Below, in pieces: positions 1,241-63,561 of a stretch of 64,000 nucleotides of DNA. Position 1 is the stretch's first letter, and every line of letters begins with the position of its first letter. Origin of the DNA: Candidatus Omnitrophota bacterium (GTDB lineage Bacteria > Omnitrophota > Gorgyraeia > Duberdicusellales > 4484-171). The position numbers and the translations under genes were made by a program. Where the stretch lies: NCBI GenBank assembly GCA_021735655.1, contig JAIPGM010000001.1:161728-225727 (forward strand), in the 5' to 3' direction. The notes under the pieces are model-generated. The model had not been told where the DNA came from. It ran no database searches and saw only the letters and a program-made list of their open reading frames with translations.

Positions 1241-4200
1241 CCCTTGGATAATGGTAAGCCAGAAGTTCCGATGCCTTCTTCTTATTGGATCGATCATAGC
1301 CTTCTTCATGAAATTGATAATGTTTGGGCTAACTTGGATTGGATTAATCCCGGGCCAAGTTTAAGCATAGCTCGCCAGATTGAGAAAAATTTTAAGCCAG
1401 CACAAGAGCCAGGTTTTTTAAGAGTTAGCATAGATGCCTTTGGTCCGCTTAACGGATTTAAAAATCAAGTATTAGCTGAACATGAGCAGTATTTTGATTC
1501 CGAGGTTTATAAAGATTATCGAGCTGGCATAATTCATGCTATTGATAATCTTTGGCAACACGGCGGAAAGTACGGTGCCTTATTTTTGATGGCTCAGCTT
1601 AGAGGACGAACCGTACGCTTTACTTATTGTTTGCTAGATCGCGGTGATGGTTTTATTAATGACGATTACAACCATGTTCGTTTAGAAGAAGCCGTTCAGG
1701 CACATAGAACATTTAAACGAGCCGGCAAGAATGGTATGGGCCTTTATTATATGGCGATAAAGCCGGATTATTTTTCAATCACCGCGGTTAATTGCTACCG
1801 GGCTGTTGCCACAACTCAAGCTCACTATTGGGAAACTGGCTACACTAAAGAATGGCCGTTTTGCCCGCAACAAACTCCGGTTAACAAGGGGGTGCGGGTG
1901 ATTTCGGTAAAGGATGTAGCTTTAGGCCTTTTGCCATTTTCGAATATGCAGCCGTTAGATAATGGCCGTCGAACTGATGAAGAACGCCTGGATTTTATCG
2001 GATTTTTAGTTGAGTCATATTTAGAGGCTTTATTTACTTTCCGGAGGTTAAGAGCAAATAACAGCGAAGTAGCCGAGATGTATCTGCCAGCAATTTCCGA
2101 AACTGCCGTTAGAAAGAAACGAGCCAAATGGGTAGTTACAGCTGTTGAGGTTGCCCGTGAGGCATTTCAGGTTATGGCTCGAGCTGATTTTCGACATTCA
2201 TCCGGCTTAACCATTCGTTCAATCTTTGATTCAATTTTGGCTTCTGGCGGTCGCAACCAAGCAGCTAATGATCTAGGAGTCGATCGCGCTAGCCTTACTC
2301 GCTGGATGCATAGCTTACCTAATGATTTATTAGGTGGGTTAGATCCAGAATTAGCAGTCTTCAAACAAAGAATCCTTGATTTATTTGATGAAAACAATAC
2401 TCGACCCCTAGACAACGGTAAAGAAAATATAGATTTATTAGCGGTTACAGCAGTTAAAAGAGAGGACACCTCACCGTGGCTGGCGGGCCCTCTCTCTGCT
2501 GTAGCCCCTATATATATAGGTAAACAGCAGGGGCCGCTAGATAACGGCCGAGCGCCTTTGGATAATGGCCAGCCAGCTAACTTTTGGAAAGTTTTGCATT
2601 CTGGTATATACGTACTTCCGATATATTACACTCGACTTTTCGATACAGCTAAAGACGCAGGAATTGGAAAATATACTTATGTAGTGCCGTTTGTTCGTGA
2701 TCATGTATTGTCTTTAGGCCATCAAGCGATACTTTTCTTACCGTTTTCTTTGCAGTTACCTTGGTCGCAATCTCCTTATGATGCGGCTGATTGGCGTTAT
2801 TTTAATACTGATTATATTGATTGGGGGCTTATCCCTGAGGCTCAACCTTTTCTAGGTAAGTTCGATTATTACGGTCATTCACAGCGTAGCGTTGATTTTC
2901 GATCAATCCGGCCACGTGAATTATTAATCGGAAAGGCCGCCTTTCTTAATCTCAGAGACAATCGAGAAAAACAATACCGCCAGCGCTGGGAAGATTTTCA
3001 AAGGTTTGTTAACAATCAGCGAAGTAGAGGGCCGGAGTGGGATTTAACCCATCTTGGTCATTACCGGGCCTTCAATGATGTCTTGGGTAATGATTTTGGT
3101 TTATGGGTTCATGAAGGGATGTATTGCCCTAGGCAGGATACCCATCCAGATGTTATCAAGTACAACGTTGCTGAGCAAAATAAAAATATGCAATATTCAG
3201 ATTTAATTCAGTTCTATCAATACCAGCAATGGATTGCTTTCGGCCAGGCTCGCGATATGCTTGAAGGTTTGCGCAATATTGGTGTCTTTTATCTTTTAGA
3301 TAATCCTTTCTTTCATGCTAAGGGTGGTATTAATTTTTGGACCCAAAACATCATTTCAAGAGATAGGCATTATGAATTTTTTGATCGTTCACCCGGTGTA
3401 CCCGGAATCGGTAGTGACCCTGAACAATTCTGGACATCTTTGGTTCCTTGGAATTGGCCTAGATTAAGAGAGTTGGACTATGAACCTTTCTTAAACCCTT
3501 ATCATTATTATTTAGGTGATTTGGGCGCTCAGGGAGTTCGGGCTGATGCTATTCATTTTCTTTTTCCTTGGATTCATTGGGAACGCGGTCCTTATGCTGC
3601 TAATTTTCAGAGTTGGGAGTCCCCGGGTCATGATTTACTTTGGAGATTAGACAACGTTTTTAATTCTTATGGAGCTTTCAGGCTTGGCGAGTTACTTGGC
3701 CCGGGTTTTGAAAGTATTCAGAGAATGGGCTTTGATAATTATCACTGGCATTTCTATCGGATGTGGAAATGGGGTGGCGGACCTGATTTAAATCCGGGTT
3801 GGAACGCAAAAGCTTTAGAGTTACATGATGGGCCGCGGGTTTGTGTTGACCATGAACACGGGTTCTATCCTTATGCCGGACACGCTTATTTACGGCATCG
3901 TTTGGAGGGCCCGGGCGGTCTAAAAGAATTAAATAGTCGTTTCCTTTTAGGCAGTTCGGATATAGCTATGGTTTATGCCGGAGATGAAGTAGCCGACAAC
4001 TGGTGGATAAATAACCCTAATCTGCCTGAGTGGATGATGGATCGTAATTGGGCCACTCGAATGCCAATGCAGGGCGATCAGGATTTTGATCTTTCAGTAG
4101 CCTTGTCCATGCTTGAGCATCGCCGTTGGATTGGCCAGCGTCTAATTGAGCGGACGCCTTTGGATAATGGTAAGCAAGAGTTTAATCATCTTAGCTTGGT

Positions 4201-7200
4201 TGAATCTAACGGTGAACAAAAGTTATACTCAGCCAGTAGTTTAGTAATATCTCAAAGGGGAGTCTATTTAAGCCCGACATCAACCGGGCCGAAAGAGGTA
4301 ATTTCTCAGATTCAACTTAGCCCAAGCGGAATTAAAGTTTCCGGGGAGTTAACTAGCCAGGAGCCAAAATCCCGGCCAATAGATTATCGTCACTCTTATG
4401 AAATTAACTTTTATTTTGAAAAATTAGCTAAAGCCTATGGCCGCGGTTTGTTTGTCGGTATCAATGACGTACAGCTTTGGATTCGTCTTAGCCAGGCTTT
4501 GGGTGATTTTTTATGGGGCGTTTTGCGTCTTGAAACAGGGATTTTTGATATTCCCGATAGAAAATTACGACGCCTGGTGATTCAGGAAGCGCTTTATCAT
4601 GAGGTGATGACTAGTGCCTTGGGGCTTTCAGTGGCTAATCGCGGCTTGCGTGAGTTTTTTGCAACCATTTTAAGTGTCAGCCATTTTTGCTATCTTAGCG
4701 AGATAGCTAAAGATCAGGATAAGCTTAATTATCGTTTAGGGATTCTGCAAGCTCTTGATCGGGGTTTAATCCAGATGAGTGATTCACTGGCTGGGCTATA
4801 CCGTCAAATTGCCGAGTCTGGCAGTTTACCTGATCCAGCAACCTTGGTAAAAGCAGTTATAACCCATATTAATGAAGAAGAACGATACCATAGTGACCGG
4901 CGTTCATTTAGGGATTATGTTCGAACTAAGTCCGAGAATTTTAGCGGACGCTTTACAGTCGGAAATCTTACCCAGGCGGTATTAAATGATTCAGCTTTAC
5001 AGTTAGAGTTACAGGCAGAGTGGACAAATTTCTTGGGATTTTTAGCTAATTCACAAACCGTAGCCCGTGCCTGGCAGCCGAAAATTAAATTTATAAGAGG
5101 TCCGCGGGGCATAAAGGTTATTAATCCCCAAGGCGTACCGGATCAAGGCGGCTATCAATTCCAGCTGCAAAGTTTCCGGGCAATTTTTGACTGTTTGGGT
5201 TTGCCTAATCCGCTTAGTGAGCCAGCTGCCCTAAATAGATATTTAGGTTTTCTGCCTGAGCCTCCTGAGTATGACTCCCAAGCCGTAAATTTACCGGAGT
5301 TAAACATCAGTCAAATTTTACCCGGAGTAGCTGTTGTTTATCCGGATAGTTTGGAAGCTAATCAATTAGCGGTAAGGCGAGCTTTGTATGAATTGATGAA
5401 TTTTCGGGTTTGGAAGTTAGCCGTTGAAATACGTGGCGCCTTAGGTACAGAAGATGCTTTGTTTTTTGATCAGCATTGTCAGGTACATTCCTTTGTTGAT
5501 GTAGCCCAAGGGTGGATGTTAGATTTAAATCCCCAAAGCCCGATAGTCTATGATGATGTTTTACCCGGCGGCCAAGCTTACGAAGCGCCGGAGCAGCCGG
5601 ATTTAGCCGAACATGAGCGATTGCATCAAAAGGCTCAGGCAGTTTTTTCAAAAGTTTGGGCAATCACTATGAACAGGTTCTTGCGGGATCAGCGGATGTT
5701 TGGCGGTGAAGCCGTGGGTTTAGTTGGCTTTACTACAACCGTACCAATATTATATCGTTACATACAGCAATGTAAGCATTCTGAGCCGGAATACTCACTA
5801 CAGCGACCTTTGAATAATGGCCTAGGCATACTTCAATATTTACAATCTTTACGTCGTAGCCAGGAAACCGAGGCTGCTAGAAGGGTTAGTCTAGACCAAG
5901 GCTTTGGGCAATTAAAAAGTTTATTAGTTGAAAAATTACAGTCGATTGATTCAACCACTTTAAGCATTGCAAATCTTGATCAGGCTTTGAATGAAGATAG
6001 CCAGGCGATATTTTTAACCTTAGAGCAATTAAGAGAGGCACGCTTTCAGGCTGAGAGCTTTCGTAATGGGCAGGTAAGTATGTGTGATCTTGCTAGCCTA
6101 GCTTTGGCCGCTGCCAGCGAAGAAGTTTTTGGCCAGAGACACTTAGTTAAAATAGTTGTTGGCTATTATCGGGTTGATGAGCAGCTATATAAAAAACATT
6201 ATTGGGTTGTGATTGATGAAACATTGTTGATTGATATAACTTATGGTCAGTTTGATCCGGACCATCTCAATCGTATTTTAGTTGCTACAGTAGATGATTA
6301 CTTGAGATTAAAATTAGAATATGGTACAGAGTTAGAGCCGCTTGATAATGGAAAACAAACTCAAGTTCAGCCTACTTGTTTAGAGGCTAGGTGGTGGAAT
6401 AATTATTATCCCGGGGTTATCGAAGGAACTGGAATAAGGCCGACTGCCCGCTCACTTAGCTTTGAGCAGATCGAAGAAGTGGTTTGTCTATTACTTCTCG
6501 ATCAAGCCGGCCAGGAATTGGTAGCTAAAATAATAAATAGAGAACTGCCCGATGTATATCCTTCGGTTCGAAGAACCGCTCTTAAAGCTATGGTCAGGTT
6601 CGATCATTACGAACTTTTTGGCCCGAAGATAATTACTTGTTTGCAGGATGTAGTCAGAGATGGAGCTGAGATGTATCAGCCTTTTGCTCTTTATGCTTTG
6701 GCTCAGACCCCGGCTTTTAATGGCCCGGTTGCCAATAGATTTGCCGAGGAAGCACTTAAGGGGACCCTTAAACCAAGCCCAAGAAAGCCTACCGCAGCCG
6801 AAAAAACTGCCTTACAGGAAGGGTTAGAGCCAAATACTCAAGCGATTAGATTTAAATCCCGGCTTGCTTCAGTTGAATATTTAAAAGGAGTTTTAGCTCA
6901 ACGTCAAGGTTGGGCTCGGGTTTGCCTCGGAACAGTACCACATTTTAGTCGGGTTAGCAATCGCGCTTTAATCAATAAATTTGCTGCTCAGGTATTAGCA
7001 GCTGATAAAAAGCTTTCTTCTAGTTCAGCTCAGCGACGCCAGAAAGATAAGTCAGAATTTTGGGGTCTTGAGCAAGCTGAGTTTATTCATCCAGCTACTG
7101 GCCATGAAGCTTTGGTTGAGCTGGCCAATGATCCGGAGTTATCATCTAGTGATGAAAGTCCTTTGGTTGATCAAATACTACATCAGATGGAGGAATTAGG

Positions 7201-10200
7201 TTATGTGCCGATATTGCGACCCAGTAAATTTCAGCTTACTGAGCCAGCTCAAGGTCAGGAAGCTGAAATTGATCGCGAGGCGCTTTGGACCAAGGATGCT
7301 GTTTTGATGATTTCTACTAAATTCGGAATAGTTCCGGTTTCTTCAGCATTAGCCAATCTTAAGGGCGGTGAGTTCGTCAGTGGCTATGGTAAGCGCGGCA
7401 GCTTTATGATTATTCCGGCAGCCGCTCTAAATTCAAAACAGCAGCTATCTGATATAATTCCCGAGGTTCCGATTCATGTATTTCCTTCGGGATTTTTGGT
7501 GATCAATGATCAGGGCGTAATTCGTTTAAGAGGAACCTCGCATATTGACACTTCTTTAGGAGCAATTCCGATTATGGCCCGGCCAGAATCAGGCCAGTTG
7601 ATGTTAATCGATCCTTTGTTGCATCAGGTTGCCCGTACACACCCTCGCTATCGCGATCACTATCAATCAGTAGTTCAAGAAGATGGAGTGCGTTTTATTG
7701 ATGTGCCCGAGCCTGAACGTCATTTAAATCCTGCTAATTTTGGTATTCTTCCCGGTGGAGAAATATTTATGCCTTATGCGCCGCGGACTAAACAAGTTTT
7801 AATTGAGGCTGGGGTTAATGAGCAGTATATAATAATGTTACCAAGTGAATTTAATAAGTATTTACCAACCCTTCATGTTTTGGCGGGGAGTATTGGCTGT
7901 TTAGTGGCCCAAGCTTTTCATCCGGTTGAGAAGCGAGAGCCGCTCGACAATGGCCATGAAAAAGAAAAACGGCAAACTAGATCCCGAGCAATAGATATAT
8001 CAACCAAAGGTGCTGAAGATTTATTGTTTACTGAGCTTCAAACAGGGAGTTTAGTTAGTTTAGTGGTTGATGGCCTTGAGTATTGGCTTAGCCTTGACCA
8101 GGGCGATGAAGTTTGGTTTGATTTATATCGGCCTAAAGATGATATCATTGGCTATATTTATTTTCGAAATGACGCAATGCCAGCCAGAAAAATAGCCAAT
8201 TTTGGCGGCCCGAGCATTGTTCCGGCTTACCGGGGCAGGCATTTGTCGCGAGTTCTTTATTTTGTTTATTTTCGTTATCTTTGGCGCAATAATTATATCC
8301 CTGAAGAAGACTGTTTGACTATCGATGATCGATTGGCCCTAAAGCTTTATCATGAAGCTAAAAAGTTTTATTACGATCAAGACCATACCTTTACTCCGTT
8401 TCAGATTATTCCCCGAGCCGAAAAGACTAAAGCTGCAAAACCTTTAGATAATGGCCACGATATGGTTCAAAAACAATTATTTGAGTTAATTAAGCGTAAG
8501 TCAGATTCGATTAAAACTTTCTTAGAGCCGTTTGAAGCTTGCCTTGCTTACAATGGAGTGTTAGCTTTGCTGATTCGAGGAAGGCCTGACTTGAGCGTTA
8601 AATTTTTGCTTAAGAAGATTGGCTCGGCTGAGCATTGGTTTTTACTGGCTGAAACTGTTTTAGGAAATCATCAGTTTGTGGTTGATATTTCGCCGCAAGG
8701 AAAGATGTTTACCGATATTGAGGTGCTGGTTGTAGATTGTGCTGAAGCCGGAAAAATAAATTATCTATATGAAGATTATACTGTAGTTAGCGATCAAGAA
8801 ACCGAAAACTTATTGCGAGCCTTAGCAAGACAAAAAGGGATGAATGAGTTCTTGCATTTAGTTCATCAATTACCAGAAGAAAAATGGATAGGTAGGTTAC
8901 CGGATAGTGACCAGTCGATGCCACTTGATAATGGTAAATTAATCAATGAAGGTTCAGAAAGTTCTTTTTCCGATATAACTAATTCGATGCGGGTGACTTT
9001 TGTTATGCCGATGTACAATGAACAGCAACGCTTACTTCCCAAGACTTCTGATAATCCCTATGGTGAAGATGCTTTAAGGGTTAAAGTAAGTCAATTTAGA
9101 GAACTCGAGCAAGAAAATCCTAATTTCCAGTGGCGGCTAATTGCCGTAGATGACGGAACTCCCGGGTTTGCTTCAGCCAAATGCCTTGAGCAGATTTTGG
9201 CTGAGATTGATGCCCAGAATCGGGAATTTAATATCTATTCTAAAGTTTTCGTAGTGGTGATAACTGAACAAGAAAAGAAACTCCTAGGCAGCCGAAAGGG
9301 TGGAGCGGTTTTGCGTGGCTTTCAAGAGGCCCTAAGCCACGGTTGGGCTGATTATATCGGGATTACTGATACTGATATTTCCAGTAATGTTAACCAAACT
9401 AAAGATTTGATTTTGGCTCTTCGCAAAGGTGCTGGAGTAGCCATTGGTTCACGCCGCCAAAGCGGGGCCGAAGCTCGCGGCATACCGCTTTTAGGGAGAG
9501 TTAGCACAGTTATTTATAATTGGTGCATTCGTTTGATTTTGTGGCCGCTTTTTTCAATTCGTGATACCCAGCGCGGTTTTAAACTTTTTCAAAAAGAAGT
9601 AATTGTCAGAATATTACCCTATGCTCGCGATCACCATCTTTCTTTTGATACTGAACTGTTACTTTTGTCGCGTTTAGCCGGATACCAAATAGCTGAGGTG
9701 CCGATTGTCTGGATTGATTCAGCTGAGGCAACTACTTTGGTTATGTCTAAAGATGCTCCAGCGATGCTCTGGCGAGTGATTAAACAAGCCCGCCATATTT
9801 TTAATAATCCTTTTCGCGGCCAAAAGCCGCTCGATAACGGCCGAAAAATAAATCTATCAGTTAGAATGCTCAGAAAAGCTAGATTAATTACTGTTCATGT
9901 TGATGCTGGAGATTGTCCAGCCGCCTTAGCTAGCGCGATTGATAAATTAGTTTCGGGTTTAGGGCAAATCCAAGTAAGCCGTAGTAATATTGTCTTAAAC
10001 ACCGCCCATCAGAATAGCCCTATGGATATTGTTTCGTCGGTAGGCTCTCTCTCAACTGAACAGATAACAACTTTATTTCCTGAAGCTGTTTTTCTGATTG
10101 CTGGCGGCAATGTGTTTAAATGCTTAAGAAATCTAGTTGAGTCATTGGCTGTCGGCTCAGTGAACAAGCGAACTGTTAGGATTTTTGTTCTTTACGATTA

Positions 10201-13200: not shown

Positions 13201-16200
13201 TTATGAAGCAGAGTATTGGTCATTCTTTTTAGCTTTTAAAATTGTTGTTTTGAATATCTTTGCTCAATTTAAAGAAGCAGCCAGGATTGTATTCCGAAAT
13301 AAAATTTTAGTTATTGTTGCCGTGCATATTCCGCAAGCCGAGCAGCCAAAAGCCGGCCCAATTTTAAATATTTTAGAATACTTAAGCCAAAGATTCCCTT
13401 CGAAATATTATAGTGTCTTTGTTGGTTTTCCGGATTCAGGAAATCCCAATTTAAATTTAGATTTAGCTATTCCTCAAGGCTTAACCATTGGCTTAGGTGA
13501 AGGCGATGAATACAACATAGTTAATTCTCAAGGCCTTAAACTTAAATTTAGCTGGCAGTTTGAGGGGCCAGACGATTTAAGCCAAAGAACTTTAAAAATT
13601 GGACGCCACAAGTTATTAATGCCATTGTGCGCTGAAAGTTCTCTTCCGGTATTTTCCGGAGCTAAGAAAAAAATTCCCCATAAGGCTATCTTCATTCCCT
13701 TTATTGCTTTTCGTCCATGTATTGTTACCTGTATGAATGATTTAATATTTCTCAATCTTCCGATAATTGGATTAGATACCGCTAATGGCATATTTTTGTT
13801 TGTTCCCGGCTCAACCCAGATTGATATAGTCGGTACAAACAAGCTTCTGGCCGTAGCAATTAATCATTCCGGCAGGGTGATGGGCAGTTCATTTAAAGAT
13901 TTGGACCAAGTCGTTCCTTTAGATAATGGACGTCAAACCATTTCCCACTTCCGAAGTGGGGAAGGTCAGAGCCGGACCGGCCCGACATCCCGTAATTTCC
14001 CCCTGGATAACGGCGGCCGGAATAATGAAGCTATCGAAAACAATCGGTTTTCATTCGCTAATCGTCTAGGAAAAGTTTTAGTTGCTACTGTTATCGGTGG
14101 AATTTCTTTAGGGTTATTGTATTTATTCGGCGGCCTTGATTGGTATACAAATATAAAAAATAGTATTCCTTTAGGGGCAGTGATTTTCTGGCCGGGGGCT
14201 TTCCTGGATATGGTTACCGGTGTTTTGATCTGGTTAATTTCCGATATCGTCGGTCAATATCTTAATCAGGGTAGAAGCATTCGCTATCGGCAAAGTTTTA
14301 AAGTTGGTGCTTGGGGAGTATTTCAAGGGTTGGCTACTCACATTTTGTATAATTTAGTTGAACTGCTTCCGGTTGTGCCTTTACCTTTAGCGCAAGCAAT
14401 GTTTCGAACTATTTTTACTCTTTTTGGCGGACTGACTATTAACATTTTCTATACCGTGGTTGTAGCCCGGGCTCGTAAAGCATCTAAGGCTGAAGGTTAT
14501 AGCGGCCTAAAGGAGCGCCACAAGGCTTATGATGTTATTTTTAGTAAGTTTATCGTCGCCCCAATCAAAACTTATTTTATAGTTAATCTATTACCTCCGG
14601 CAACGCGGGTTATTAGCGAGCAGGCTTGGGAATACTTAATGAAAGTTTTTGATGCTTATTTGATGAACCGTAAAGATTCACTTTTTTCTAGTTATATTCT
14701 AAATTTATTATCTAGAAAAAAACCTTTAGATAACGGCCGCTCCGGGCAGTCGGATGATCAAATAACTTTGGTTTCTGATAATCTGGTTGACTCATTTAGA
14801 AATGTTAGACAAAGGCTGGTAGTAACTGTTAGGCGCGCACAGATGTCTAGATTGGATTTTAAGCCGGGGATAGTGTCACTTCAGAATATGAGCCCAAAGG
14901 TAGATTATTTCTGCCTTTCTTCAATATCTGAACGCCAAGAAGATATCCAAGCCTATAGGCAAGTTCCTTTAGTACAGGATGGTGCTAGTTTTGGAGAAAG
15001 TTACAGTGAAAAATATCTTATTGCTCAGGAACCGGATACCTTAGTTTTAGTTGAGGGTGATGAAGGGTTGATTGCCAGTTTTGATTATTCGCTTTGTGGT
15101 TGTCTAGTCATTCGGGCTAGAAATCTTTTTGGCATGGCCCACTTAAGTCCATTTATAGATTTTTCGGATGAAGAGATGGAAATTGAAAATGATCGGATTT
15201 ATTATAAATATTTATCAGTTTTAGATTATTTCAAATTACAGGGATATAAAGATGTTCAAATTTTTCTCAGTTTGAATGAGCTGCTTCAGGGATTTAAAAC
15301 TTTAAAAGCTAGGCTTTGGTCGGCTGGTGATAGCGATGCGACTAATCGTCAGAGAGTGGTAGATCTTCTTGGGATTGAGGCTAGGCAACGCGGCATAGCT
15401 GTTGTTGATCGCCGCCTTCGACAAAAGTCTGAGGTTCTAGATGTCCTGGGTTTTCCGAGAAAAATGATTAGCCGTCAATGGCTTAATCGCGGCACAAAAC
15501 CCGAAAGTTTTGAAATAATATTTATTGAGACTAGAGATGAGTTGCCAGTAGCCATAAACTCAGAGACTCAACAACCCGAGATTGAATACTTTCAATTCGC
15601 TTGGCCTGTTGTGATACCTCTCGATAATGGCCGCCGGAAACTACCAAATGATGACTGGATTTGGGTTAATGGAGAGAGTTTGCAATTTGTTGGCCGGGAC
15701 GGTTTATTGATAACAGGAATGGAGGGCCGGGGTAAAAGTTTTTTGGCCAGAAAAATATACGATAGCGATGATAGATGGAAAGTCGTATCCTGCGGAGCTA
15801 CTCATGTATGTATAAGGAATGAATTAGCAGAAAGAGCGCTTTTAGGCAGACGTTTATCCGAAAATAATCTTTTATATTCCCGGCTGTCAGGAACAATCCC
15901 GGTAGAACTATCGTTAGATGTAGTTGTTAGGTTGAACTGGGTTATGGCCTTAGACGATCTATACCGAGAAATTTTAGGGGGATTGTTGGCCGATGCCGGG
16001 CAAAGAGAGTCTTTGGGCCTCAAAATTATAGATATGAGCGATCTAGACGTAACTCGGCAATGGCCGAAAGTGTTGAAGTTCATCAATGCGTCTATTGTGA
16101 AACCAGAGACTTACGATAAAGGAAATAGTTTATTTCAAGTCCCTCTTGATAATGGTAGACGAGCTCAAGTTGAACAGGAACGGGAATTTTTGATCCAGAC

Positions 16201-19200: not shown

Positions 19201-22200
19201 TCCGGAAACCAATCGCTTTCTTTTTTATCCGTCCGCAGATACTCAAGATCTTACAAAAATCATCTGGTGGGTTTTACAGTCGTTAAGAATGAGTAGTATA
19301 AAAAATCGGCTATTACATAATATGGAGTTAGCTCGGCAATTTAAAAAAATCGGCCCCTTTGATAATGGGCGAGCTGATTTTACAACAGCAGACGAACAGA
19401 TCGGTAATCTTTTTGCTGAGGCAGTTATTACAGGAGATAATGTTTTAATTGAGACTCATTGGGATGCTGTAGCGGCTAAGAGAGGCGGCAGTTTGAATAT
19501 TTTAGAACATGCTGGCTTAAGGATTACAAGAAGTTTAGCTTTAGGAATTGTACCGCGGGCTGGTGAATGGCCGGATAGGGTTGAAACCGATCAAATCATT
19601 CTGAGTTCATCTCGCTATGGTTGGATCGATTCTGAAAGAGATATTGAGCATTTGTTAAGCGGCTTTGATCAAGCCAGATTGCTTAATTCGTTTAATCTTG
19701 GCCATTATTATCAGGGTTGTCACTATCGAAGTTTCCTAAGCTGGCTAGCGGTTTTAAAGAGTAGTCATTTCCCGGCAGTTATTTTTCATTTCATAGGTGA
19801 GCTAATTAATTCTTGGGGTATTAAGCCAGCTGCTAAGAGTGATTTTCCAGTTTTGGCCAGTCGAAGGGATATCTTTTCTTTCGTTAGCGTGCCTTATGTT
19901 TCAGATATAGAAAAATTAGATTTGCCAGTTGCAGTGTTTTTTGATGGTAAGCTTAGTTCGCTTAGGCGTGGCGATAGCCGGAAACAGCCAACTTTAATAT
20001 TAGCTTATTGGCAAGCTTTGAATGGTTTTATTGGTTTTAAAGAACAGATAGCTAGGGAAACAGCAGAATTTCAGAATACCCCTTTAGATAATGGCCGCAA
20101 AGAGCATGACATCTCTGATAGTACGGTAATCCAATGGCCGCTTAATGTAATTGTTAAAGATATGCGCGGTTTATCCAAAGGCGAGATATTAGCTGTTGTT
20201 AAAACCGGTAAAATATTTTGGGGAAGGGAAATAGTAGGAGCTATTTTTTCTGACCGCAATATTGTTTTTGGTAAAGTGGTCGATGATAAGTTTATAGTAT
20301 TTGATGATTGGTTAATTGAAAGAATTCCTGGAGGATTGTTAGAGGGGTTGCGGAGAAGCATTTTATTTTTGCCTTATTTAGGAAGTATTTTAAGAAACAA
20401 GACATCGTCAATAAATAAACCCCTGGATAATGGCAAGAAATATAATTATCGGCAAGTCCTAGAGATGGTTGACTGTTTTGATAGTGCAAGGTTAGAGGCT
20501 CACTTATTTAGAGCTCTTGGCAGAGTTGAGACTGAAGCCGTATCTATAGCTGGTGATATTATTAGGGCGGCTAGAAAATTTGAACGGATAACTAAAGCAG
20601 TAAAATCTCTTTATAGGAAAACTTACGGCAAGCTACCTAATTTTACTCTTGCTTTCGATCCTTCCGGTCAAGGTATGTATGGGGCGTATCAGGAGGATGA
20701 TACAGCCGGATTTTTTGATCATATTGGCGTAGCTCCAGAAGATGTGCTGCTTGAGGTAGGCAGCGGCGATGGAAGCATTTCGGATTTCATGGCCCATATG
20801 TTTGGGATTAAGGCAACTGGGATTGAGGTTTGGGAGCCATATTATCATTACGCAGTTTTCTTAAGAGATGAAGCAGTAAGAAGAAGATTCATTCCAGAAG
20901 GTAAAGTAGATTTTTTAAATAATAATTTAGTAGATGTTGATTTTTCAAAGTATTCTTTAGTGTACTACGCTGCTCTTGGCACAAGAAGAAAAAGTGAGCT
21001 GGCTGCTAGATTGCTTGGGGTAAGAGAAAAATCCAGGATATTAATTCGGGGTTCACCTGATGAGTTAGTGGAAGGGATTATCGCATCACATCCTGATTTT
21101 AGCTTAAGGAAGCTTGAGATAGAAGTTAATGAAAACCTTACTGGAATTAAGGCAAGGGTTTATACTCGAGAGACAATTACCAGTTACCAGCCGGTTCTCG
21201 ACGTTCCTCTAGATAATGGCCGAAAAAATAACCCTCAGATGGTCAGAGCGCGCTTAGCCGCATTTGAAAAATCAATCGAGGGCATCGTGCCTAGGGCAGA
21301 TCCGCTTTATGACCATTTAATTCGTTTTTATCAATATCCTTTGAATAATTTGGGTGAACCTGACGAAGAGACCTATGTAAGGAATAATACCAAGGAGCAG
21401 GAGCGGGAGCTTCTTAGATTCTGGGCCGGCCATTTCGGCCTTCCTAAAAATTACGGCGGTCATGTGACTATCGGAATCGGTCAGGCTGAATATTATGCCA
21501 TGTACGTGGCTAGCAATCGATTTCCCAAGGCTATATTTTATATTTCTAATCAGGTCGATAGCCTTCTTTATGATACTTTACAGGTGTTGGGCATTGATCA
21601 AGGAAGAATAAAGTTAATTAGGTCTTTAGAGAATGGCGAGATCGACTATGGTGATTTAAAGAGAAAGATTAGGGAGAATTCATCATGGCCGGCGGTGGTC
21701 TGCTTGACTGCTGGCAGATTCCTGGGGGCGGTTGATGATTTAGGAAAAGTGGAAGGAATTTTAGGGAGCCTGGGCCTAAAGCATAAACATATTCATTGCA
21801 GCATGTCACCGTTAAGTATAGGCCAGTCGTTTTTGGAAGATGCGGCAAAGATAGATTTTCAACATGGCTTAGATAGCATGAGTCTACCGTTGTATCATTT
21901 TGTAAGGTGTCCGATGCCAGGAGTCATCGTTCTTACCAGAAGGAAATACCTTCAGAACATTGCTTGTAGTCAAAAAGCAGCTGAGTATGTTAACTCTAAC
22001 GACACCACTAATTCTGGATCACGTAGTGGTCATGCTCCGCTTTATCTTTGGTTTGCTACAAAAGTTATTGGGACTAAAGGATTTAAGGCTCAGGCTGAGC
22101 GGGCCAGGGAAGTTTGTGTTTCTATTAAAGCTCTATTTGACCGTTACGGTTATCCTTGCCGGTTCACCGCGCAAAAAAATACAATAATCTTTGAGCCACC

Positions 22201-25200: not shown

Positions 25201-28200
25201 TCAAGTTCTGGATGTAGATGTTCTTGGCCATGACTATTGTCATATCGATAGAGTTGGCTTTGACGCTTGGCCTGATATGGCTATCGATCACTTTGAAATG
25301 GCCCGAATTGTTGATGAGCAGGATCAGCTATTACACACTTTTTGGTACGGTGTTTATTCAGAACGGATTCCCAATAGAGGTAGAGCTAGAATTTTAGGGG
25401 CGACTTTTACTGCCGGAGGTCACCTGCGACTTGGTAACGAAGATGTTTATCATGATGCGAACTTTCCCGAAGCTAGAGTAAATGTTACTTATATTGACGG
25501 AGAAGTAAGTGAGATATTAATTTATCAGGATGCTCAAGGCAACTCAGTAAATTATCATTATACTAAAAAGCAGATAGATAATTATAAGCGCAGAGTGCAA
25601 TATTATAATCTGCGCGGTCATGTATTCGAGCATGCTTTAAGAGTTGCCTTACCTTTTTTAAGCGACTGCCCTTTTGATTATCAAAAGCGCATTGGTGGTG
25701 AAGTTGATGGGTGGGTTGATGGTGAAGCTGAACCAAAGCCAGCTGATTCCAGATCACTTAAACGTCCAGATTTTACTAGTCCTTTTAGCTGGGCAATGAG
25801 TGAAGGGGTATTGTGCTATATTGATGCTAAATTCAATCTTAGAATTAAGTTTTTAATAGAATATCTAGAGGCAATTAAAGAGACTTTAAGAACTGATTAT
25901 TTTACTGATTGTGATGCCCCAGTTGAAACACATTTTGTAGGAAGAGTTATATTTGAGATAGTTTATTTAGGCAGAGTAAGTGAAGCTAATGTAGAGGCAA
26001 AGTTAGCTGGTCATCAGAGAAATTTTTCAGCTACCAATTCTGAGATGCTCACCTTGAAACCAGTTAGCTTTCTTGATGAGTACGGAGATAGGCTTAAGAC
26101 CGCTGGTCAGGATACTTTAGTAAGGTTTCTGAGACATCTGAGAGTTTTTCATTATAAGCCAGGTCGCAAGAAAGCCTTAGATAGCTATTTAGCCCAATTA
26201 GAACAGGATAAAATTCCCGAGATAGCCGATGAGCAGACTAATCTTTTTTCAAGGCCGCTGGATAATGGCCGAGAAAGATTATTGGTTAGTAGCGGTAATA
26301 GTCATTTAAAAAGTTTTCGTGAGGCGAAAGGTTTATTAGCAAAATTAAAATGTACAGACATTTTTGGGGTTGTCATGGGTTATCGCGCTGCCTTAGCTGA
26401 TAGAGATAATTATCAGAGAGTATTTGCTCGTGATTCTGTTTGGATGGGGTTAGCCGAAATGCTTTCCGGCTGTAAAGGTAGTTTAGCTTTAACATTAAGC
26501 GTATTAAAACATCATCAATGTCGGTACGGACAGAGACGCGGGGCTATTCCGAGTAACATTTCAAGGTATCATCGGGTAAGTTATGGGACAACTAGCCCAA
26601 GAATTGATCCAACCCTTCTTTATATTGTTAGTTCTGGCCAATATTATCGGTCCAGACCAGCCTATTTTCAAAAACAGTTTCTCGTTGAAAATTTATCGCC
26701 GCTACAAAAAGCTATAGCATATTTAGAAAGACAATGGGTTATGGATAACGGTTTATTGTTTATTCCGATTGCCGGAGATTGGGCTGATGAATATTTTCAA
26801 CAAGGCCTTGTTTTGTATGATGAAGTTTTATGGTATATGGCACTTTCAGAGTATGCCTACCTTTTAGCTGAAGATAATAATTCTAATTCAGAAGTTTATC
26901 AAGCTAAGGCTGCTTGGGTAAAGAATATAGTCAGATCCAAATTTTGGATAAATAAAAATCCCGGTCAAGGCAATTTGGGGCATTTCCGTCATTTTTTCAA
27001 TCAATTACAAAGCCCGAATCAGGCAGCGACATTTGGCTGTCCCTATGATAGCTTTGATGCTTTTGGTAATATTTTGGCAATTCTTTCCGGCGTGGCTACA
27101 GAGGAGCAAACTGCTCAGATAATTAAATATATTGATGTAATTTCAGAAAATAATCAGCCATTACTGGTGCCGGCACATTATCCGGCAGAAGAAGTTGAAC
27201 ATTTTGTTCACACAGGTGCTCCGTATCGGTATCAATTTAAGAATAATCCCGGGTGTTATCATAATGCTGGTTTATGGTCATGGTATACAGGTTTATATGT
27301 TGCGGCATTAGTGAAAGCCGGCCGATTAGACCGGGCGGCTAAATTTTTAGAAGGGGTACAGCTAGCCAATGAAGCTAAGGACTCAAATGGCCGGGGGTAT
27401 CATGAGTACCATACTAATATTCCCGGTCAATTGAGTAGGCCGGGTGGAGTTAGCAATTTAGGTGTCAGCGCTGCTGGTTATATAATAGCTCACCAAGCAT
27501 TTTTTAAAAATAAGATTGTTTTTGGTCAGAATCATCCTTTAGACAACGGCCGTCAGATGCCTGATTATTTTTCTCCGGTTGGAGACGTCAATGTAACTCT
27601 TAATAGTTCTTCAGAAAAAGCCCCCCTTGATAACGGAAGAAATTATTCCAGTTCGCCAATATTTCAAGAGACAACCTTTACCTATTGGTTAAGAGTGAGT
27701 TTATATTTATTAAGATTTTTGCTTAGTGCACCTTATTATTTTATTATTACTTTAGTTGTATCAAGAATGATGAAAGGAAAAAACATTTTATTTGTATCTT
27801 ACCGTATTAATGAATTTGCTTTAGATGGAGTATCTTTAGAAATAAAAGAGTGGCGAAATCTTTTATATCGATTGGGCGCACATATTTTTCTATTTTCTGG
27901 TCATAGCAAAATTGTTCAGGATGGAAGTATCACCGGTCAGGCTCCGGATTGCATTGAGAGTGATTTTCTTGCTGAACAGGCAACAAAAATAAGAGAGAAG
28001 ATTGAAAGAGAGGGAAAGCTAGATGCTGAAGATTTTGAATTAATTCATAGAGCAAAAGAGATAATTAAACGCAATCTGCGTAAGTGTATCTTGGAAAATA
28101 ATATTCACTACATTGTTTCGGAAAATGTATTTTGTCTACCGGGAAACCTCGCTCTTGCCGAGGCACTTATAGAACTTGCCGAAGAGTTTCCTCGGTTAGG

Positions 28201-36566: not shown

Positions 36567-37349
36567 ATGAAGTTTAGAAAAAGAATAAAAAATGTATTTT
36601 TCCATAAATCCATTTTGTGGGAGATGTCGATTAAGCAGCTTAAGGCAAAGTATTCTGGTTCTATGTTGGGTATTTGGTGGGCAGTGGCGACCCCTCTTAT
36701 TCTGGCTGTAAGTATTAATTTTATTTTTACTAATGTATTTAAGGTGGGTATTGAAAATTTTACCTTTTTTGTTTTATCAGGGATAGTCCCTTGGCTATTG
36801 TTCTCTAATGCTATAAACGAAGCCGCCGGGTCTTTTATTGCCAATTTTTCGGTATTAAGGCAGGCCATTTTTCCTCGAGAGTTTGTTCCAATGACTTCGA
36901 TTATCTCTAATTTTTTAATTTTTCTGATCGGTTTATTGATTCTGCTTCCTTTTTTTATTGTTTCTAATCCGAGGGTAATTACGGTTTTGCCGTTTCTGTT
37001 GGTAGTTTTATTTTTTTATTTATTTTTTCTTGTCGGGCTTGCTATGATTTTTTCATCTTTAAATGTTTTCTTTCGTGATGTATCCCATCTTTTAGCTATC
37101 GGGTTAATGGTTTGGTTTTGGGTTACGCCTATTTTTTACTCTTTGGATATGTTACCGGCTTCATTTCGCTGGATCTGCTTAAGTAATCCAGTTACTTACT
37201 ATGTAGTTTCTTATAGATTAATTTTGTTTGAAGCGAAGCCGTTATCCCTTCCAATTTTGTTAACTTTATTTTTTATTTCCTTTACGTCATTCATCGTTGG
37301 TTATGCCTTTTTCCTTAAAAATGAAAATAGTTTATTAAAACGAGTATGA
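36567..37349 (+). CDS. ABC-2 type polysaccharide exporter permease (Wzm/TagG-like)
   Basis: 260 aa with six hydrophobic segments and an N-terminal LKAKYSGSMLGIWWAVATPL typical of ABC-2 permeases. It overlaps the next gene by ATGA. Confidence 0.75.
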   Translation: MKFRKRIKNVFFHKSILWEMSIKQLKAKYSGSMLGIWWAVATPLILAVSINFIFTNVFKVGIENFTFFVLSGIVPWLLFSNAINEAAGSFIANFSVLRQAIFPREFVPMTSIISNFLIFLIGLLILLPFFIVSNPRVITVLPFLLVVLFFYLFFLVGLAMIFSSLNVFFRDVSHLLAIGLMVWFWVTPIFYSLDMLPASFRWICLSNPVTYYVVSYRLILFEAKPLSLPILLTLFFISFTSFIVGYAFFLKNENSLLKRV

Positions 37350-40300
37350 GGATAATAGAATTTAATAATGTTTGGGAGAAGTACCGGATTAAATTTGTAA
37401 GGGACAGGAAAGTTTCTTGGGAAGAAATTTGGGCTTTAAGCAATATAGACTTTACAGTTAATAAGGGTGAAGTTATAGGAATAATTGGTGAAAATGGTGC
37501 CGGAAAAACTACTTTATTAAAATTAATCGCTGGCATGTTTGCTCCGGATAGAGGAGATATATCTGTTCGAGGAAAGGTATCGGTATTGATGGAGCTAGGG
37601 GCTGGTTTTAATCCTGAGTTTACCGGGAGGGAAAATGTTATTCTTAATGCCCGTATCTACGGGTTAGATACAGACATAGTTGAACAGCAAATGGAGAAAA
37701 TCGTCGAATTTGCTGATATTGGTAAATTTATCGATGCCCCGGTTAAATATTATTCACAGGGCATGTATACCCGTTTAGCATTTGCTTTGGCTATATTTGT
37801 AGAGCCGGATATTCTTTTAATTGATGATATTCTATCGGTAGGCGATGCTGACGCACAAAAGAAATGTATTGATAAAGTATTCAAGTTAAAGGAATCGGGA
37901 AAGACTATTATTTTAGTAAGTCATGACATGCATATGATAAGTAGGCTGTGCGATCGAGTTATCCTTTTGGATAAAGGTAAACTTATCGACAGAGGTAATC
38001 CCGCTGAGATTATCTATCATTACCTAGAGACTGTTGGGGATAAAAGTGGTATTGCAGTTTTAGAAAAGGATAAATTAAGATTAGTATTTAATAATGGGAG
38101 AATTACTTTTAGCTACGCAGGAGTGCCCCTTACTAAAGAATTTGGTGGTTATGTGGCTTATTTTGTTTCTTCCCTTGGTAGTTGGCTTTCTTCTTTTGAT
38201 TTATTCTGGAAGATAAGCCATTTTTCAGCTAATAAAATTGTTGCTGAGGGAGAATATAAAGGTAGAGGGCCTTCTCAGGTTTGGGTTTTGGAATTTTCTG
38301 AAAGCAGATTATGTTGGCAGGTGAAGATAAAAGACAAAGATGTAAGAGATCCGCATATAGATTTATTGCTTAACCCTCAATATAAAAAATGGTTAAATTT
38401 AGACCAAGGCGGGGGTTTTCCTTCCTTTATTTCTAAATCTACTTGGCAGAATTTGGGTTTAGCTAATTTTCCCCAAGCTATGGTCGGTTTAACCGCAGAC
38501 TTGGAAGTTAAGAGTTGTCCTTCTTTTGTTTTGACCGCAGAGGATAAGGATACTCAGATTAGACTTTTCAATACAGGTTATGACCAGGAAGGACGCATTA
38601 TTCAGTTGGATTTAAAGTTAGCCGGAGACAATCTATTTTTTCTTAAAATATTTCCTGAGAAAAATATATTTGAAGAGTATATTAAAAAAGAGAAAGATAT
38701 ATTTGAAGAGAGCATTAAAAAAGTAAACCAGCAACTAGCTTTAGAGAAAGAAGCGCAACAGGTCAGATTGCGGGATTTATCAACTTTTGCTTGGGGCAAT
38801 TTTAGTCTTTTTGCTGATAAGGAGGAAAAGTCTTTAAAGCTATACTTTAAGAATAAAGAAGTCACCAAAAAAGAAGGATTCCATATATCTTTTTTGATCA
38901 ATAATATCTGGTACGATACTACTTCTGCGGATTGGCAGATAACTAAAGAAAAGGAAGTTTTCATAATTAAACTATTTTGGAAAGTGTTTGATTTTAAACA
39001 AACTTGGAAATTTTCAGTTAAGAATGGGGGGCTTCTTTGGAATTTAAATTCCATCGTAAAGAAAACCTTCAATCCAGAGATTATGAAAATCGGTTTACTA
39101 TTAATAAGTGAGTACAAAACTTTCTTTTGCGGTTATCAGCAGGAAGATTTTCCAGATAAATTCAGCTCTTGGCAGGATATGTCTCTCAAAGACCCGAAAG
39201 CAAGATGTTTTGGTTTAAGAAAACAAACATCGTTACCGGCGATTGCTTTAGATAACAATGAAAGTTTTGATTGTATTGTACAGAACAGCGATGAAGAAAA
39301 TTCCTGTCGGGTACTACAGCTAAGCCTTCCCAGGCAAAGTTTTATTCAAAAAAATACATCTTTTGGTGTTCAACTTAGCCTGCTTGAAGAGGAAAGTCCC
39401 ATTGATCATTACCTTAAACAAGAAAGACAGGACCATTTACTTAGGCAACAAGAAGCAAAAAGATTGCTTAGCGCTAAAAGTACTATATCAAAAGATAATT
39501 TTCGTTTTTTTGTTGATAAGGAAGAAAAATCTTTAAGGATATACTTTAAGGACAAAGAGATTACTAAAGGGGCCGGTCTACATAGTTCATTATGCGTTTT
39601 CGGGAAGTGGTTTCATAGGGAGGAAACTAGGTGGCAGACAAAAAAGATTTCCGATGAAGAAGTAGTTTTAATTTTAAGTTATGACTCACTACCGCTTTTA
39701 CAAATTTTTTCTCTTAGTTTCAAAAGAAAGGGTATTCTAAGAGTTAAAGTCGAAATGGAAATAAGCGAGCAGATTCATTTGTCTGATCATCATCTGAAGC
39801 TTGAGCTTCAAGATGACTATAATAATTGGGATACTGGCTATGAGCAAGGCAATTTTTTTATTGATCGATATGTGGATGAGATCGGTCCGATTAGACTAAA
39901 AGATAATAGAATTTCGAATATACTATTGAGATCAAACAATGAAAGTAAAATTCCAAAAATGCTTTTGAAAATTATTTCCCAAATTGATAGACGAATTATA
40001 AACCTTTATAAGCGAAGAAGTGAAGATGGAGAATGCGTTGGCCTTTGCTCTCCTTTGATTGTATCTAAAAAAGAAGAACTGGTTAAACCTGGAAAGTATA
40101 CTTATTTCGAAGGAGAAATCATATTTGGAAAAGAAGCTAAATTAGAAAGAGAAGCTTCTAGGGTAGATATTGTCGAGCTTAAAAAAGATGATATAAGATT
40201 TGTTTTTGATCGTGGCAGAGTTAAAATTTTCTGGAAGGAAGAAGAGTTAACTTCGGAATTAGGAATTTATACCTCATTGCGTTCAAAAGGAATCTGGCAG

Positions 40301-40813
40301 GATTCTTACCAGGCAGCTTGGGAAATAGAGCATAAAGCTAAGGAAAAAATTGTGGCAACTGGAGGTTGGCCTTACCTTCCCATTTCTCAAACATGGAAAT
40401 TAGAGTTGCTCGGCAAGAATTCAATATCTTGGCAAGTTGACATGGAGATTTACGGTGAAGTTAATTTAGAGATAGAACAGGCTAGTGTAATGATTTCTTC
40501 TAAATACAGGAATTGGGAAATTCCCAGTTTTAACAGCGGTAAATTTCTTGATGTCTATGTTAAGAATCACGATATTCTACCTTTTAGATTTTGGTCTGGG
40601 GATGCAAACAAGATAGCTGCTGTTTCAGAATGTTTTCCCTCGATAATTTTTAAAAGCGAAAGACAAGATAAAGAAATGCAGGCGGTTATAGAAAATACAG
40701 GTATTTTATATAGGGCAAGGTTGTTGCAGTATCAAAGTACAAGTAATAATGCAATTTTGCCAGGTAAATATCCATACTTTAGGGGGATGATAGAAATTGA
40801 GACTAGGAAGTAA
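37346..40813 (+). CDS. ABC exporter ATP-binding protein (Wzt/TagH-like) with ~900-aa C-terminal extension of four repeated uncharacterised domains
   Basis: The N-terminal ~235 aa have Walker A GENGAGKTT, the Wzt-type signature YSQGMYTRLAFA and Walker B LLIDDILSVGD. The tail holds four paralogous ~200-235-aa modules. Confidence 0.8.
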   Translation: MRIIEFNNVWEKYRIKFVRDRKVSWEEIWALSNIDFTVNKGEVIGIIGENGAGKTTLLKLIAGMFAPDRGDISVRGKVSVLMELGAGFNPEFTGRENVILNARIYGLDTDIVEQQMEKIVEFADIGKFIDAPVKYYSQGMYTRLAFALAIFVEPDILLIDDILSVGDADAQKKCIDKVFKLKESGKTIILVSHDMHMISRLCDRVILLDKGKLIDRGNPAEIIYHYLETVGDKSGIAVLEKDKLRLVFNNGRITFSYAGVPLTKEFGGYVAYFVSSLGSWLSSFDLFWKISHFSANKIVAEGEYKGRGPSQVWVLEFSESRLCWQVKIKDKDVRDPHIDLLLNPQYKKWLNLDQGGGFPSFISKSTWQNLGLANFPQAMVGLTADLEVKSCPSFVLTAEDKDTQIRLFNTGYDQEGRIIQLDLKLAGDNLFFLKIFPEKNIFEEYIKKEKDIFEESIKKVNQQLALEKEAQQVRLRDLSTFAWGNFSLFADKEEKSLKLYFKNKEVTKKEGFHISFLINNIWYDTTSADWQITKEKEVFIIKLFWKVFDFKQTWKFSVKNGGLLWNLNSIVKKTFNPEIMKIGLLLISEYKTFFCGYQQEDFPDKFSSWQDMSLKDPKARCFGLRKQTSLPAIALDNNESFDCIVQNSDEENSCRVLQLSLPRQSFIQKNTSFGVQLSLLEEESPIDHYLKQERQDHLLRQQEAKRLLSAKSTISKDNFRFFVDKEEKSLRIYFKDKEITKGAGLHSSLCVFGKWFHREETRWQTKKISDEEVVLILSYDSLPLLQIFSLSFKRKGILRVKVEMEISEQIHLSDHHLKLELQDDYNNWDTGYEQGNFFIDRYVDEIGPIRLKDNRISNILLRSNNESKIPKMLLKIISQIDRRIINLYKRRSEDGECVGLCSPLIVSKKEELVKPGKYTYFEGEIIFGKEAKLEREASRVDIVELKKDDIRFVFDRGRVKIFWKEEELTSELGIYTSLRSKGIWQDSYQAAWEIEHKAKEKIVATGGWPYLPISQTWKLELLGKNSISWQVDMEIYGEVNLEIEQASVMISSKYRNWEIPSFNSGKFLDVYVKNHDILPFRFWSGDANKIAAVSECFPSIIFKSERQDKEMQAVIENTGILYRARLLQYQSTSNNAILPGKYPYFRGMIEIETRK
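38060..40810 (+). repeat. Four tandem copies of an uncharacterised ~200-aa protein domain (also at about 40935-41600 and 50265-50906 in two radical SAM genes)
   Basis: Copies start at about 38060, 38786, 39491 and 40178. The alignable cores are LRLVFNNGRITFSYAGVPLTKEFG..., LKLYFKNKEVTKKEGFHISF..W.DT..ADWQI...QTWKFSV..GGLLWNL, LRIYFKDKEITKGAGLHSSL and VKIFWKEEELTSELGIYTSL..W.DS..AAWEI...QTWKLEL...SISWQV. Confidence 0.75.
38657..38722 (+). repeat. In-frame tandem duplication of a 33-nt unit (EKNIFEEYIKK / EKDIFEESIKK)
   Basis: Unit 1 (38657-38689) and unit 2 (38690-38722) differ at 2 of 11 residues. They sit in the linker between domain copies 1 and 2. Confidence 0.8.
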
Positions 40814-63267: not shown

Positions 63268-63561
63268 ATGAAAGCCGACCAGTTAAAGGGCAAGTGCATG
63301 ACTATTAACGAAGAAATTATTTCTTGGCGAGAGATCGACAAAGAGGTAGTATTTCTTAATAAACAGGAAAAAAGTTTTTACGAATTAAACAAAACAGCTG
63401 AGATCATTTGGCGCCAGTTAGCCAAAGGCGGTAAACTGACTCAGGTAATTTCTCAGGTTCAAAAGAAATATAAGAAAGTAGGTAAGCAAGACATAGAAAG
63501 AGATGTAATTGCTTTTATTGCAGATGGAATTAAGAAAAAAATATTTATTGTTAATAAATAA
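63268..63561 (+). CDS. PqqD-family protein (RRE-type peptide-binding chaperone-like)
   Basis: 97 aa. VVFLNKQEKSFYELNKTAEIIWRQL...QDIERDVIAFIADGIKKKIF follows the PqqD pattern. It is TAATG-coupled to the downstream radical SAM gene. Confidence 0.6.
   Translation: MKADQLKGKCMTINEEIISWREIDKEVVFLNKQEKSFYELNKTAEIIWRQLAKGGKLTQVISQVQKKYKKVGKQDIERDVIAFIADGIKKKIFIVNK

Follow-up and report, generated by a model that had tools for sequence, protein, structure and literature searches.

Viral polyproteins are cut at protease-specific sites, such as those of picornavirus 3C (between Q and G), potyvirus NIa and coronavirus Mpro/PLpro, and they yield small products (VPg, 6K, 2K and nsp11) as well as the spacers SP1/SP2 of retroviral Gag. 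Short peptides are also cut from multi-core precursors, examples of which are cyanobactin PatE, the KEX2-processed repeat peptides and the plant cyclotide precursors that are cut after Asn by asparaginyl endopeptidase. Engineered "fuse-and-cleave" nif polyproteins with tobacco etch virus (TEV) sites have been made for pathway expression (PMC6130400). Among natural proteins, giant "multi-enzyme metabolic cluster" proteins of Omnitrophota have been described (Nielsen & Lui 2026 preprint, 10.64898/2026.06.07.730766). For giant genes, post-translational cleavage of the proteins has already been proposed, and the cleavage points were stated to be unknown, a lack that blocked analysis (West-Roberts et al. 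2023, 10.1101/2023.11.21.568195). Neither of the two latter works mentions junction motifs, linkers or cleavage sites. In this study, we analysed a 64,000-nucleotide (nt) stretch of DNA from a Candidatus Omnitrophota bacterium (contig JAIPGM010000001.1, positions 161,728 to 225,727; "the window"), in which a giant open reading frame (ORF) of 9,751 amino acids (aa) is divided by a recurring pentapeptide, PLDNG, into 30 units. Most of these units have the size of enzymes, and a few, which we call mini-units, are very short.

On the one hand, the locus resembles the described systems. Like the Omnitrophota giants, it holds a very long ORF tiled by many distinct enzyme families, none of which is dominant. 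With viral polyproteins it shares a single ORF that encodes many unrelated, complete proteins, a short lineage-specific motif that is conserved as a peptide at every boundary, and very short products or spacers between neighbouring sites; the unit boundaries coincide with the termini of free-standing homologues. With the nif polyproteins it shares pathway enzymes that are fused for stoichiometric expression and separated by one repeated site. On the other hand, unlike viral polyproteins, it lies in a cellular, chromosome-like biosynthetic locus, its units are metabolic enzymes, and a cognate protease was not found within or beside the ORF; cleavage is here a proposal. Unlike the nif polyproteins, which are synthetic and use a known viral protease, the window would hold a natural counterpart. 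Giant multi-enzyme proteins were already known; what is new here is a boundary-motif polyprotein architecture in a cellular biosynthetic locus, for which we infer processing.

Boundary motifs of the giant ORF

The exact pentapeptide PLDNG occurs 27 times in the giant ORF, always in the same frame, against 0.008 occurrences expected from composition, and a six-frame check of the 64-kb window finds it nowhere outside the frame of this ORF. Two further junctions carry one mismatch each, giving 29 junctions in total. At the junctions, Leu is encoded by all six of its codons and Pro and Gly by all four of theirs, and this synonymous variation indicates that the constraint acts on the peptide. The residue that follows the junction is R or K in 24 of the 29 cases, never Pro and never S, T or C, and the remaining flanking residues are unconserved. 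The boundary motif of the window is accordingly [P]-[L/F]-[D/N]-N-G-[R/K]. Junction motifs of the PLDNG or LDNGG kind are described nowhere in the literature that we searched.

The units between the junctions are mutually unrelated, complete, enzyme-sized proteins. Pfam families were found in separate units (GT4, GH77-like, GT2, Bac_transf, ELFV (Glu/Leu-type) dehydrogenase, pyridoxal phosphate-dependent decarboxylase, GH100-like and a second GT4), a further unit is methyltransferase-like, and about 12 units have no Pfam family match. The coding frame has no stop across 29 kb, whereas 704 and 1,137 stops interrupt the other two. The reading frame is already open at nt 2 of the window (RLDPVRDKLLYDYLLKRL precedes the first ATG, at position 56); this ATG may not be the true start, and the polyprotein is perhaps longer, beginning 5' of the window. 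The same DNA is held by the Logan assembly of run SRR12088349 (contig SRR12088349_9023), where the contig ends within the gene.

Close relatives of this protein are few. A HMMER search with seg3 to seg6 (the units are numbered seg1 onward) against 1.84 billion representative proteins gave only 50 matches. The first half of the ORF found three giant proteins and nothing else, seg25-28 found only distant free-standing enzymes, and a seg3 probe found, among reference genomes, one contig alone (CAZFML010000001.1) and nothing in metagenome contigs or viral contigs. That contig encodes P0002, which with the longer P0053 of the same cluster (7,587 aa) is the only close relative, and it is labelled as a metagenome-assembled genome (MAG) of an uncultured Planctomycetia bacterium; the relatives P0003, P0004 and P0019 carry Omnitrophota labels. 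P0053 has 24 junctions of the form [S/N]-[L/F]-[D/N]-N-G-G-[R/K...] (sLDNGG[RK]), and the DNA of the P0002 contig has 13 readable junctions, again with synonymous variation. No junction lacks the Asn, whether among the 29 of the window or among the 24 of P0053. P0053 tolerates D-to-N (SLNNGG) and L-to-F (SFDNGG), the same substitutions as in the two variants of the window, and this suggests, as far as the sequences can tell, a common recognition code [P/S]-[L/F]-[D/N]-N-G. The proteins are modular and their units are shuffled: the window protein and P0053 share seven units, the 38-aa mini-unit among them, at 30-64% identity in differing order, and homology ends at the junctions.

A side observation concerns the P0002 contig (L002). 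On it, the ATG of the polyprotein (463 onward) overlaps the stop of a GyrA C-terminal fragment (17-466), and the methyltransferase unit of this protein is an internal unit (u10) in P0053. This would reflect either a chimeric assembly or a different architecture.

Giant proteins of other lineages use other motifs at equivalent boundaries. Homologues of the GH77-like unit (seg6) lie mostly inside proteins of 1,500-7,300 aa, and the closest is P0004 (46% identity), which like P0019 comes from an Omnitrophota MAG. Two further motif classes were found, SSSP[LV] in P0003, P0004 and P0019 (all from Omnitrophota MAGs) and R[SA]E[LVA]R (RSExR) in P0037, P0033, P0020 and P0030; both recur 10-fold to 30-fold above expectation within single giant proteins, and other giants of similar size have no recurring motif. 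The GH77-like module starts at a conserved WW[KR]D point. Six punctuated giants have their own motif (PLDNG, SSPV, SSSPV, RSELR, RAEVR or RSEIR) at 0-17 residues upstream of it, and in P0008, a homologue that stands free, the start Met precedes it by 14 residues. Considering that the motif positions match the start of P0008, we conclude that the junction marks a former gene boundary and that the motif is a lineage-specific, interchangeable punctuation. The boundary is thus equivalent across lineages, and the different motifs found at it are further candidate sites that can be tested.

We consider it very likely that the junction is a recognition site, because it is exactly conserved with synonymous codons, because the same substitutions are tolerated in two proteins, and because differing motif classes stand at one module boundary. 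The initial annotation had argued mildly for a role in recognition or cleavage from the tandem site alone, on the grounds that a doubled linker makes little sense. The recognition part of this claim is well supported, but by the evidence given above, since the tandem argument is weak in itself, and for cleavage we proceed by inference. Judging from the sequences, the junction is probably also a cleavage site.

Mini-units and the tandem junction

Unit lengths in the window are bimodal, with units of 2, 23, 24 and 38 aa on one side and units of at least 108 aa on the other. All coordinates and sequences given in the initial annotation are exact, for the 38-aa unit (seg4) as for the tandem site with RA and the units of 23 aa (seg15) and 24 aa (seg26) (Table 1). 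It had read the mini-units as possible remnants of spacers, as small ORFs or as functional peptides. Each of seg4, seg15 and seg26 is flanked on both sides by PLDNG, and the three are unrelated to one another. The tandem site between seg4 and seg6 reads PLDNGRAPLDNGQ, and its two junction copies differ at 4 of 15 nt, so that it is no recent duplication of the DNA. Such arrangements are also found elsewhere: tandem junctions are present in four other proteins, namely P0053, P0044 (SFDNGG-RSSR-SLDNGA), P0037 and P0004, and tiny units in P0037 (16 and 15 aa), P0004 (8 aa) and P0003 (36 and 44 aa). Among the 102 internal units of the punctuated giants, 11 have at most 60 aa. In P0003, a mini-unit of about 24 aa (TSLQRGSSPGSIRDVA[D/N]) precedes the SSSPV junction at about 160-187 and again at about 4358-4385, near both ends of the protein.

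Conservation of seg4 was seen in P0053. In the core of seg4, PWLAGPLSxxxPxY(N)IGKQ (PWLAGPLSAVAPIY-IGKQ), 14 of 19 residues are identical to PWLAGPLSDATPVYNIGKQ of unit u4 of P0053, a junction-bounded unit of 53 aa, and the N-terminal halves of u4 and seg4 are unrelated. In three well-conserved enzyme modules that the two proteins share (58% identical overall), only 27% of the 19-column windows are as conserved as this core. Both proteins keep the same arrangement, in which a junction, the mini-unit (seg4 or u4), a second junction, a tiny unit and a third junction follow one another; the tiny unit has 16 aa in P0053 (u5) and 2 aa in the window (RA). The units adjoining seg4 and u4 differ between the two proteins, so that seg4 behaves as an independent cassette. 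From this comparison, seg4 is a conserved cassette, not a drifting spacer, and it is likely to be functional. RA, in turn, is best read from the alignment as the remnant of a second tiny unit that is shrinking and spacer-like, and the tandem junction is most simply the scar of this shrunken unit. The initial annotation had held that mini-units which are hypervariable among homologues would be spacer remnants only. On this point the comparison is split, since the seg4 core is conserved at 14 of 19 residues, as is not expected of a spacer, and the tiny unit that follows it is variable in length, as a spacer would be. A profile of the mini-unit with its junctions found no match among 5.8 billion proteins, nor in metagenome contigs.

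An alternative is that all mini-units are neutral relics, either decayed genes or translated intergenic spacers, that the tandem junction is a deletion scar, and that they are functionless whether or not they are cleaved. The two residues of RA cannot function and align with the end of the 16-aa unit of P0053, the tiny units of other proteins are mutually dissimilar, seg15 and seg26 have no homologues, no fold is predicted for the seg4 region, and the hairpins in seg4 and seg15 could be relict terminator stems. All of these agree with relics. Against them, the seg4 core matches the best quarter of the windows of shared enzymes while its N-terminal half has fully diverged, which is a signature of selective constraint; moreover, P0003 has kept one mini-unit, of about 24 aa, at each of its ends, the third codon positions of seg4 have a GC content that is usual for the ORF, and signals of promoters and terminators are at chance level. 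Accordingly, we regard an origin of all mini-units as functionless relics as rather unlikely.

The constraint on seg4 could also act on the nucleic acid. A hairpin of 11 + 7 bp lies within seg4, and its 3' arm overlaps the conserved core. In GC-corrected stability (z = -3.7), it takes third place among about 2,900 windows along the ORF. Of the 10 distinct windows that are most stable, 6 are found no farther than 150 nt from a junction, where about 30% would be expected, which is a weak trend. If this 18-bp hairpin were an element of mRNA processing, pausing or stability, conservation of the peptide would be a by-product. However, the 5' arm of the hairpin encodes the part of the peptide that is unconserved in P0053, junction-centred windows show no unusual structure (mean z = +0.37), the hairpin has no Rfam match, and a second copy is absent both from the window and from L002. 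We therefore consider a constraint at the RNA or DNA level very unlikely to explain seg4. For the same reasons (no second copy, no Rfam match and signals at chance), mini-units as a repeated DNA element, as a known RNA family or as a promoter or terminator are unsupported. Among the other mini-units, seg15 has a GC content of 0.58, the 99th percentile of the ORF, and a 10-bp local stem, with an overall fold that is not significant, and seg26 is ordinary in RNA structure and composition.

Proposed processing of the polyprotein

The explanation that we favour, although we hold it tentatively and at somewhat less than an even chance, is a punctuated polyprotein in which the motif is a cleavage recognition site and the mini-units are very short units. 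Under this explanation, about 30 complete proteins that are unrelated to one another, a set the size of an operon, would have been fused into one frame, and each former gene boundary would now bear a short, lineage-specific peptide motif. This motif would be recognised by a sequence-specific endoproteolytic step that releases the units. Sites of proteases typically have a small residue at P1', and in the bacterial N-end rule Gly is stabilising while Arg and Lys are not. Considering that Asn and Gly are invariant in the LDNG class, that a small P1' is typical and that an N-terminal Gly is stabilising, unlike Arg or Lys, the favoured scissile bond would be that between Asn and Gly, at the centre of the invariant residues, and it would leave a stabilising N-terminal Gly. 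In this case, seg4 would be a conserved cassette under selection that is freed as a peptide of about 43 aa, RA would be the collapsed remnant of a spacer-like tiny unit travelling with seg4, and seg15 and seg26 could be either remnants of decay or short peptides particular to this lineage. Cutting at the junctions, if it takes place, must yield defined products, namely the seg4 peptide of about 43 aa and, from the tandem site, the 7-mer GRAPLDN, and the conserved core of seg4 suggests a function for at least one released peptide.

The composition of P0053 bears on whether the chain stays whole. This protein contains a 1,028-aa polytopic GT2 membrane unit (u20, 4546-5573), and its last three units, u23 (6420-6728), u24 (6734-7048) and u25 (7054-7587), are a unit that starts with a twin-arginine translocation (Tat) signal, a unit resembling M23 peptidases (E = 4e-6, under the curated Pfam cutoff) and, at the end, a sigma-70 factor. 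The Tat signal is complete (RRDFLK, hydrophobic region, AxA) and begins 11 residues past a junction. An uncleaved chain is hard to reconcile with the Tat signal, the sigma-70 factor and the polytopic membrane unit.

Nevertheless, the junctions could be structural linkers that are not cleaved, for instance a fixed hinge or a docking motif of a multi-enzyme protein of megadalton size, with the mini-units as longer linkers. The Asn-Gly of P-L-D-N-G-[K/R] makes a canonical type I' beta-turn, the giant multi-enzyme proteins of Omnitrophota were reported as single polypeptides with no mention of cleavage, no protease was found in the window, the mini-unit region has no predicted fold, and N-terminal signals are not enriched after junctions. 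However, a passive linker needs neither an invariant pentapeptide at 27 sites nor a lineage-specific invariant motif at the same boundary, and a hinge that is doubled two residues apart has no obvious use. Furthermore, P0053 includes a Tat signal, a sigma factor and polytopic membrane units, all of which need free or separate chains, and in the window seg16, with an odd number of transmembrane helices (three) in a crude hydropathy scan, would put about 4,300 residues of cofactor-dependent enzymes on the wrong side of the membrane. In view of these points, uncleaved linkers appear to us unlikely, though well worth considering.

Several results weigh against a processed polyprotein. No protease-like module or gene was found in any unit of the giant ORF or in any downstream ORF of the window, and the only candidate, the M23-like unit of P0053, has no counterpart in the window. 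N-termini that resemble signal peptides or transmembrane segments follow the junctions in 4 cases against 3.0 expected (p = 0.33), and with no such enrichment the Tat signal of P0053 stands as a single case. The conservation of seg4 is seen in a single relative, the overlap of a strong hairpin with its core may reflect a constraint at the RNA level, and seg15 and seg26, which had no homologue in any search, wholly lack comparative support. The AlphaFold2 model of the seg4 region showed no confident fold, which is weak evidence from a single sequence. A role of seg3 as the protease was rejected, since it is all-alpha and helix-turn-helix (HTH)-like and has no fold match: its AlphaFold2 model has eight helices (predicted local distance difference test score 73), and the fold comparison gave no significant match and only weak HTH matches.

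Known mechanisms of chain separation were compared with the junctions. 2A/StopGo was rejected, as it needs D(V/I)ExNPG followed by Pro, and the window junctions have no NPG and never Pro at +1. An intein/Hint element or an N-to-O/S acyl shift was rejected because none of the 29 junctions has S, T or C at +1 and there is no Hint or intein Pfam match. A double-glycine leader processed by C39 was rejected because a single Gly is followed by R or K and the ABC proteins carry no Peptidase_C39, although P0053 does have NGG. A sortase reading was rejected on its defining residues. Self-cleavage by Asn cyclisation, as at the C-terminal Asn of inteins, between the two Asn residues of autotransporters and at NPTH in type III secretion systems, agrees with the invariant Asn of the junctions; the unconserved flanks and the lack of predicted structure in the junction region argue, though not decisively, against an activating fold.

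The mini-units also invite comparison with multi-core precursors of ribosomally synthesised and post-translationally modified peptides (RiPPs). As in these precursors, a repeated motif flanks short peptides on either side, and a scissile bond between N and G would resemble the sites of asparaginyl endopeptidase. A PqqD-type protein and many radical-SAM/SPASM enzymes are encoded downstream of the ORF. Unlike the cores of a small, leader-bearing precursor, which are related or repeated, the mini-units are unrelated and lie among enzymes of 100-900 aa in a 9,751-aa array. The window has no leader peptide, dedicated protease or macrocyclase, and the distance downstream is more than 11 kb to the first maturase-like genes and 34 kb to the PqqD gene. 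No free-standing precursor-peptide gene was found in the downstream cluster, where tiny intergenic gaps leave no room for one. A stronger form of the processed polyprotein can be imagined for bacteria of the Planctomycetes-Verrucomicrobia-Chlamydiae (PVC)/Omnitrophota type, in which the motif would be self-sufficient, for example by Asn-driven self-cleavage between N and G, and would allow entire pathways to be expressed from a single ORF, and the mini-units, seg4 above all, would be freed as peptides and be substrates of the PqqD and radical-SAM enzymes encoded downstream, a RiPP-like precursor hidden in an enzyme polyprotein. We consider this combination highly improbable.

The junctions give explicit candidate processing sites for the question of whether giant Omnitrophota-like proteins act whole or cut. 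If the processed polyprotein is true, the locus would be a natural cellular counterpart of the "fuse-and-cleave" strategy of viruses and synthetic biology.

Genomic setting and minor features

The coordinates of the features are collected in Table 1. The locus is set in a large biosynthetic cluster. On the same strand, 3' of the giant ORF, lie genes for an Opp-type ABC importer, an amine oxidase, ABC-2 exporters and two GT4s, together with at least nine radical-SAM domains of the SPASM and B12 types, some of which are fused two- or three-fold.

Table 1. Positions of the features in the window (nt, window numbering)
Feature	Position	Strand	Remark
Giant ORF, 9,751 aa	56..29311	+	first in-window ATG; 29 junctions, 30 units
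seg3, 146 aa, all-alpha, HTH-like C-terminus	1967..2404	+	64% identity to P0053 unit u14
Junction PLDNG(K) 5' of the 38-aa mini-unit	2405..2419	+	
Mini-unit seg4, 38 aa, KENIDLLAVTAVKREDTSPWLAGPLSAVAPIYIGKQQG	2420..2533	+	homologous to P0053 unit u4
RNA/DNA hairpin, 11 + 7 bp	2441..2510	+	3' arm overlaps the conserved seg4 core
Conserved core of seg4, PWLAGPLSAVAPIYIGKQ	2474..2527	+	counterpart PWLAGPLSDATPVYNIGKQ in P0053
Tandem junction copy 1, PLDNG	2534..2548	+	
Two-residue unit RA	2549..2554	+	aligns with the end (…RG) of the 16-aa P0053 unit u5
Tandem junction copy 2, PLDNG(Q)	2555..2569	+	
seg6, 529 aa, GH77-like 4-alpha-glucanotransferase module	2570..4156	+	N-terminal boundary matches junction motifs of other lineages
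Degenerate junction PLNNG	5807..5821	+	within former seg7
Junction, 23-aa mini-unit seg15 (13931-13999), junction	13916..14014	+	
Degenerate junction PFDNG, then R	19355..19369	+	within former seg20
Junction, 24-aa mini-unit seg26 (27551-27622), junction	27536..27637	+	
seg28, C-terminal unit, 72 aa	29093..29308	+	50% identical to internal, junction-bounded P0053 unit u12
PqqD-type peptide-binding protein	63268..63561	+	PF05402, E = 4e-11, above curated cutoff
Radical-SAM enzyme after the PqqD gene	63561..window end	+	

Three of the downstream genes are themselves enzyme fusions and carry no PLDNG-type motif: 37346-40813 joins an ABC ATPase to a radical-SAM-like region, 43160-47014 holds three radical-SAM + SPASM repeats, and 50920-54078 holds two B12-radical-SAM repeats. 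In 2-kb bins, the giant ORF has a GC content of 0.39-0.43 and the genes downstream of it one of 0.34-0.39, and the GC skew is positive throughout.

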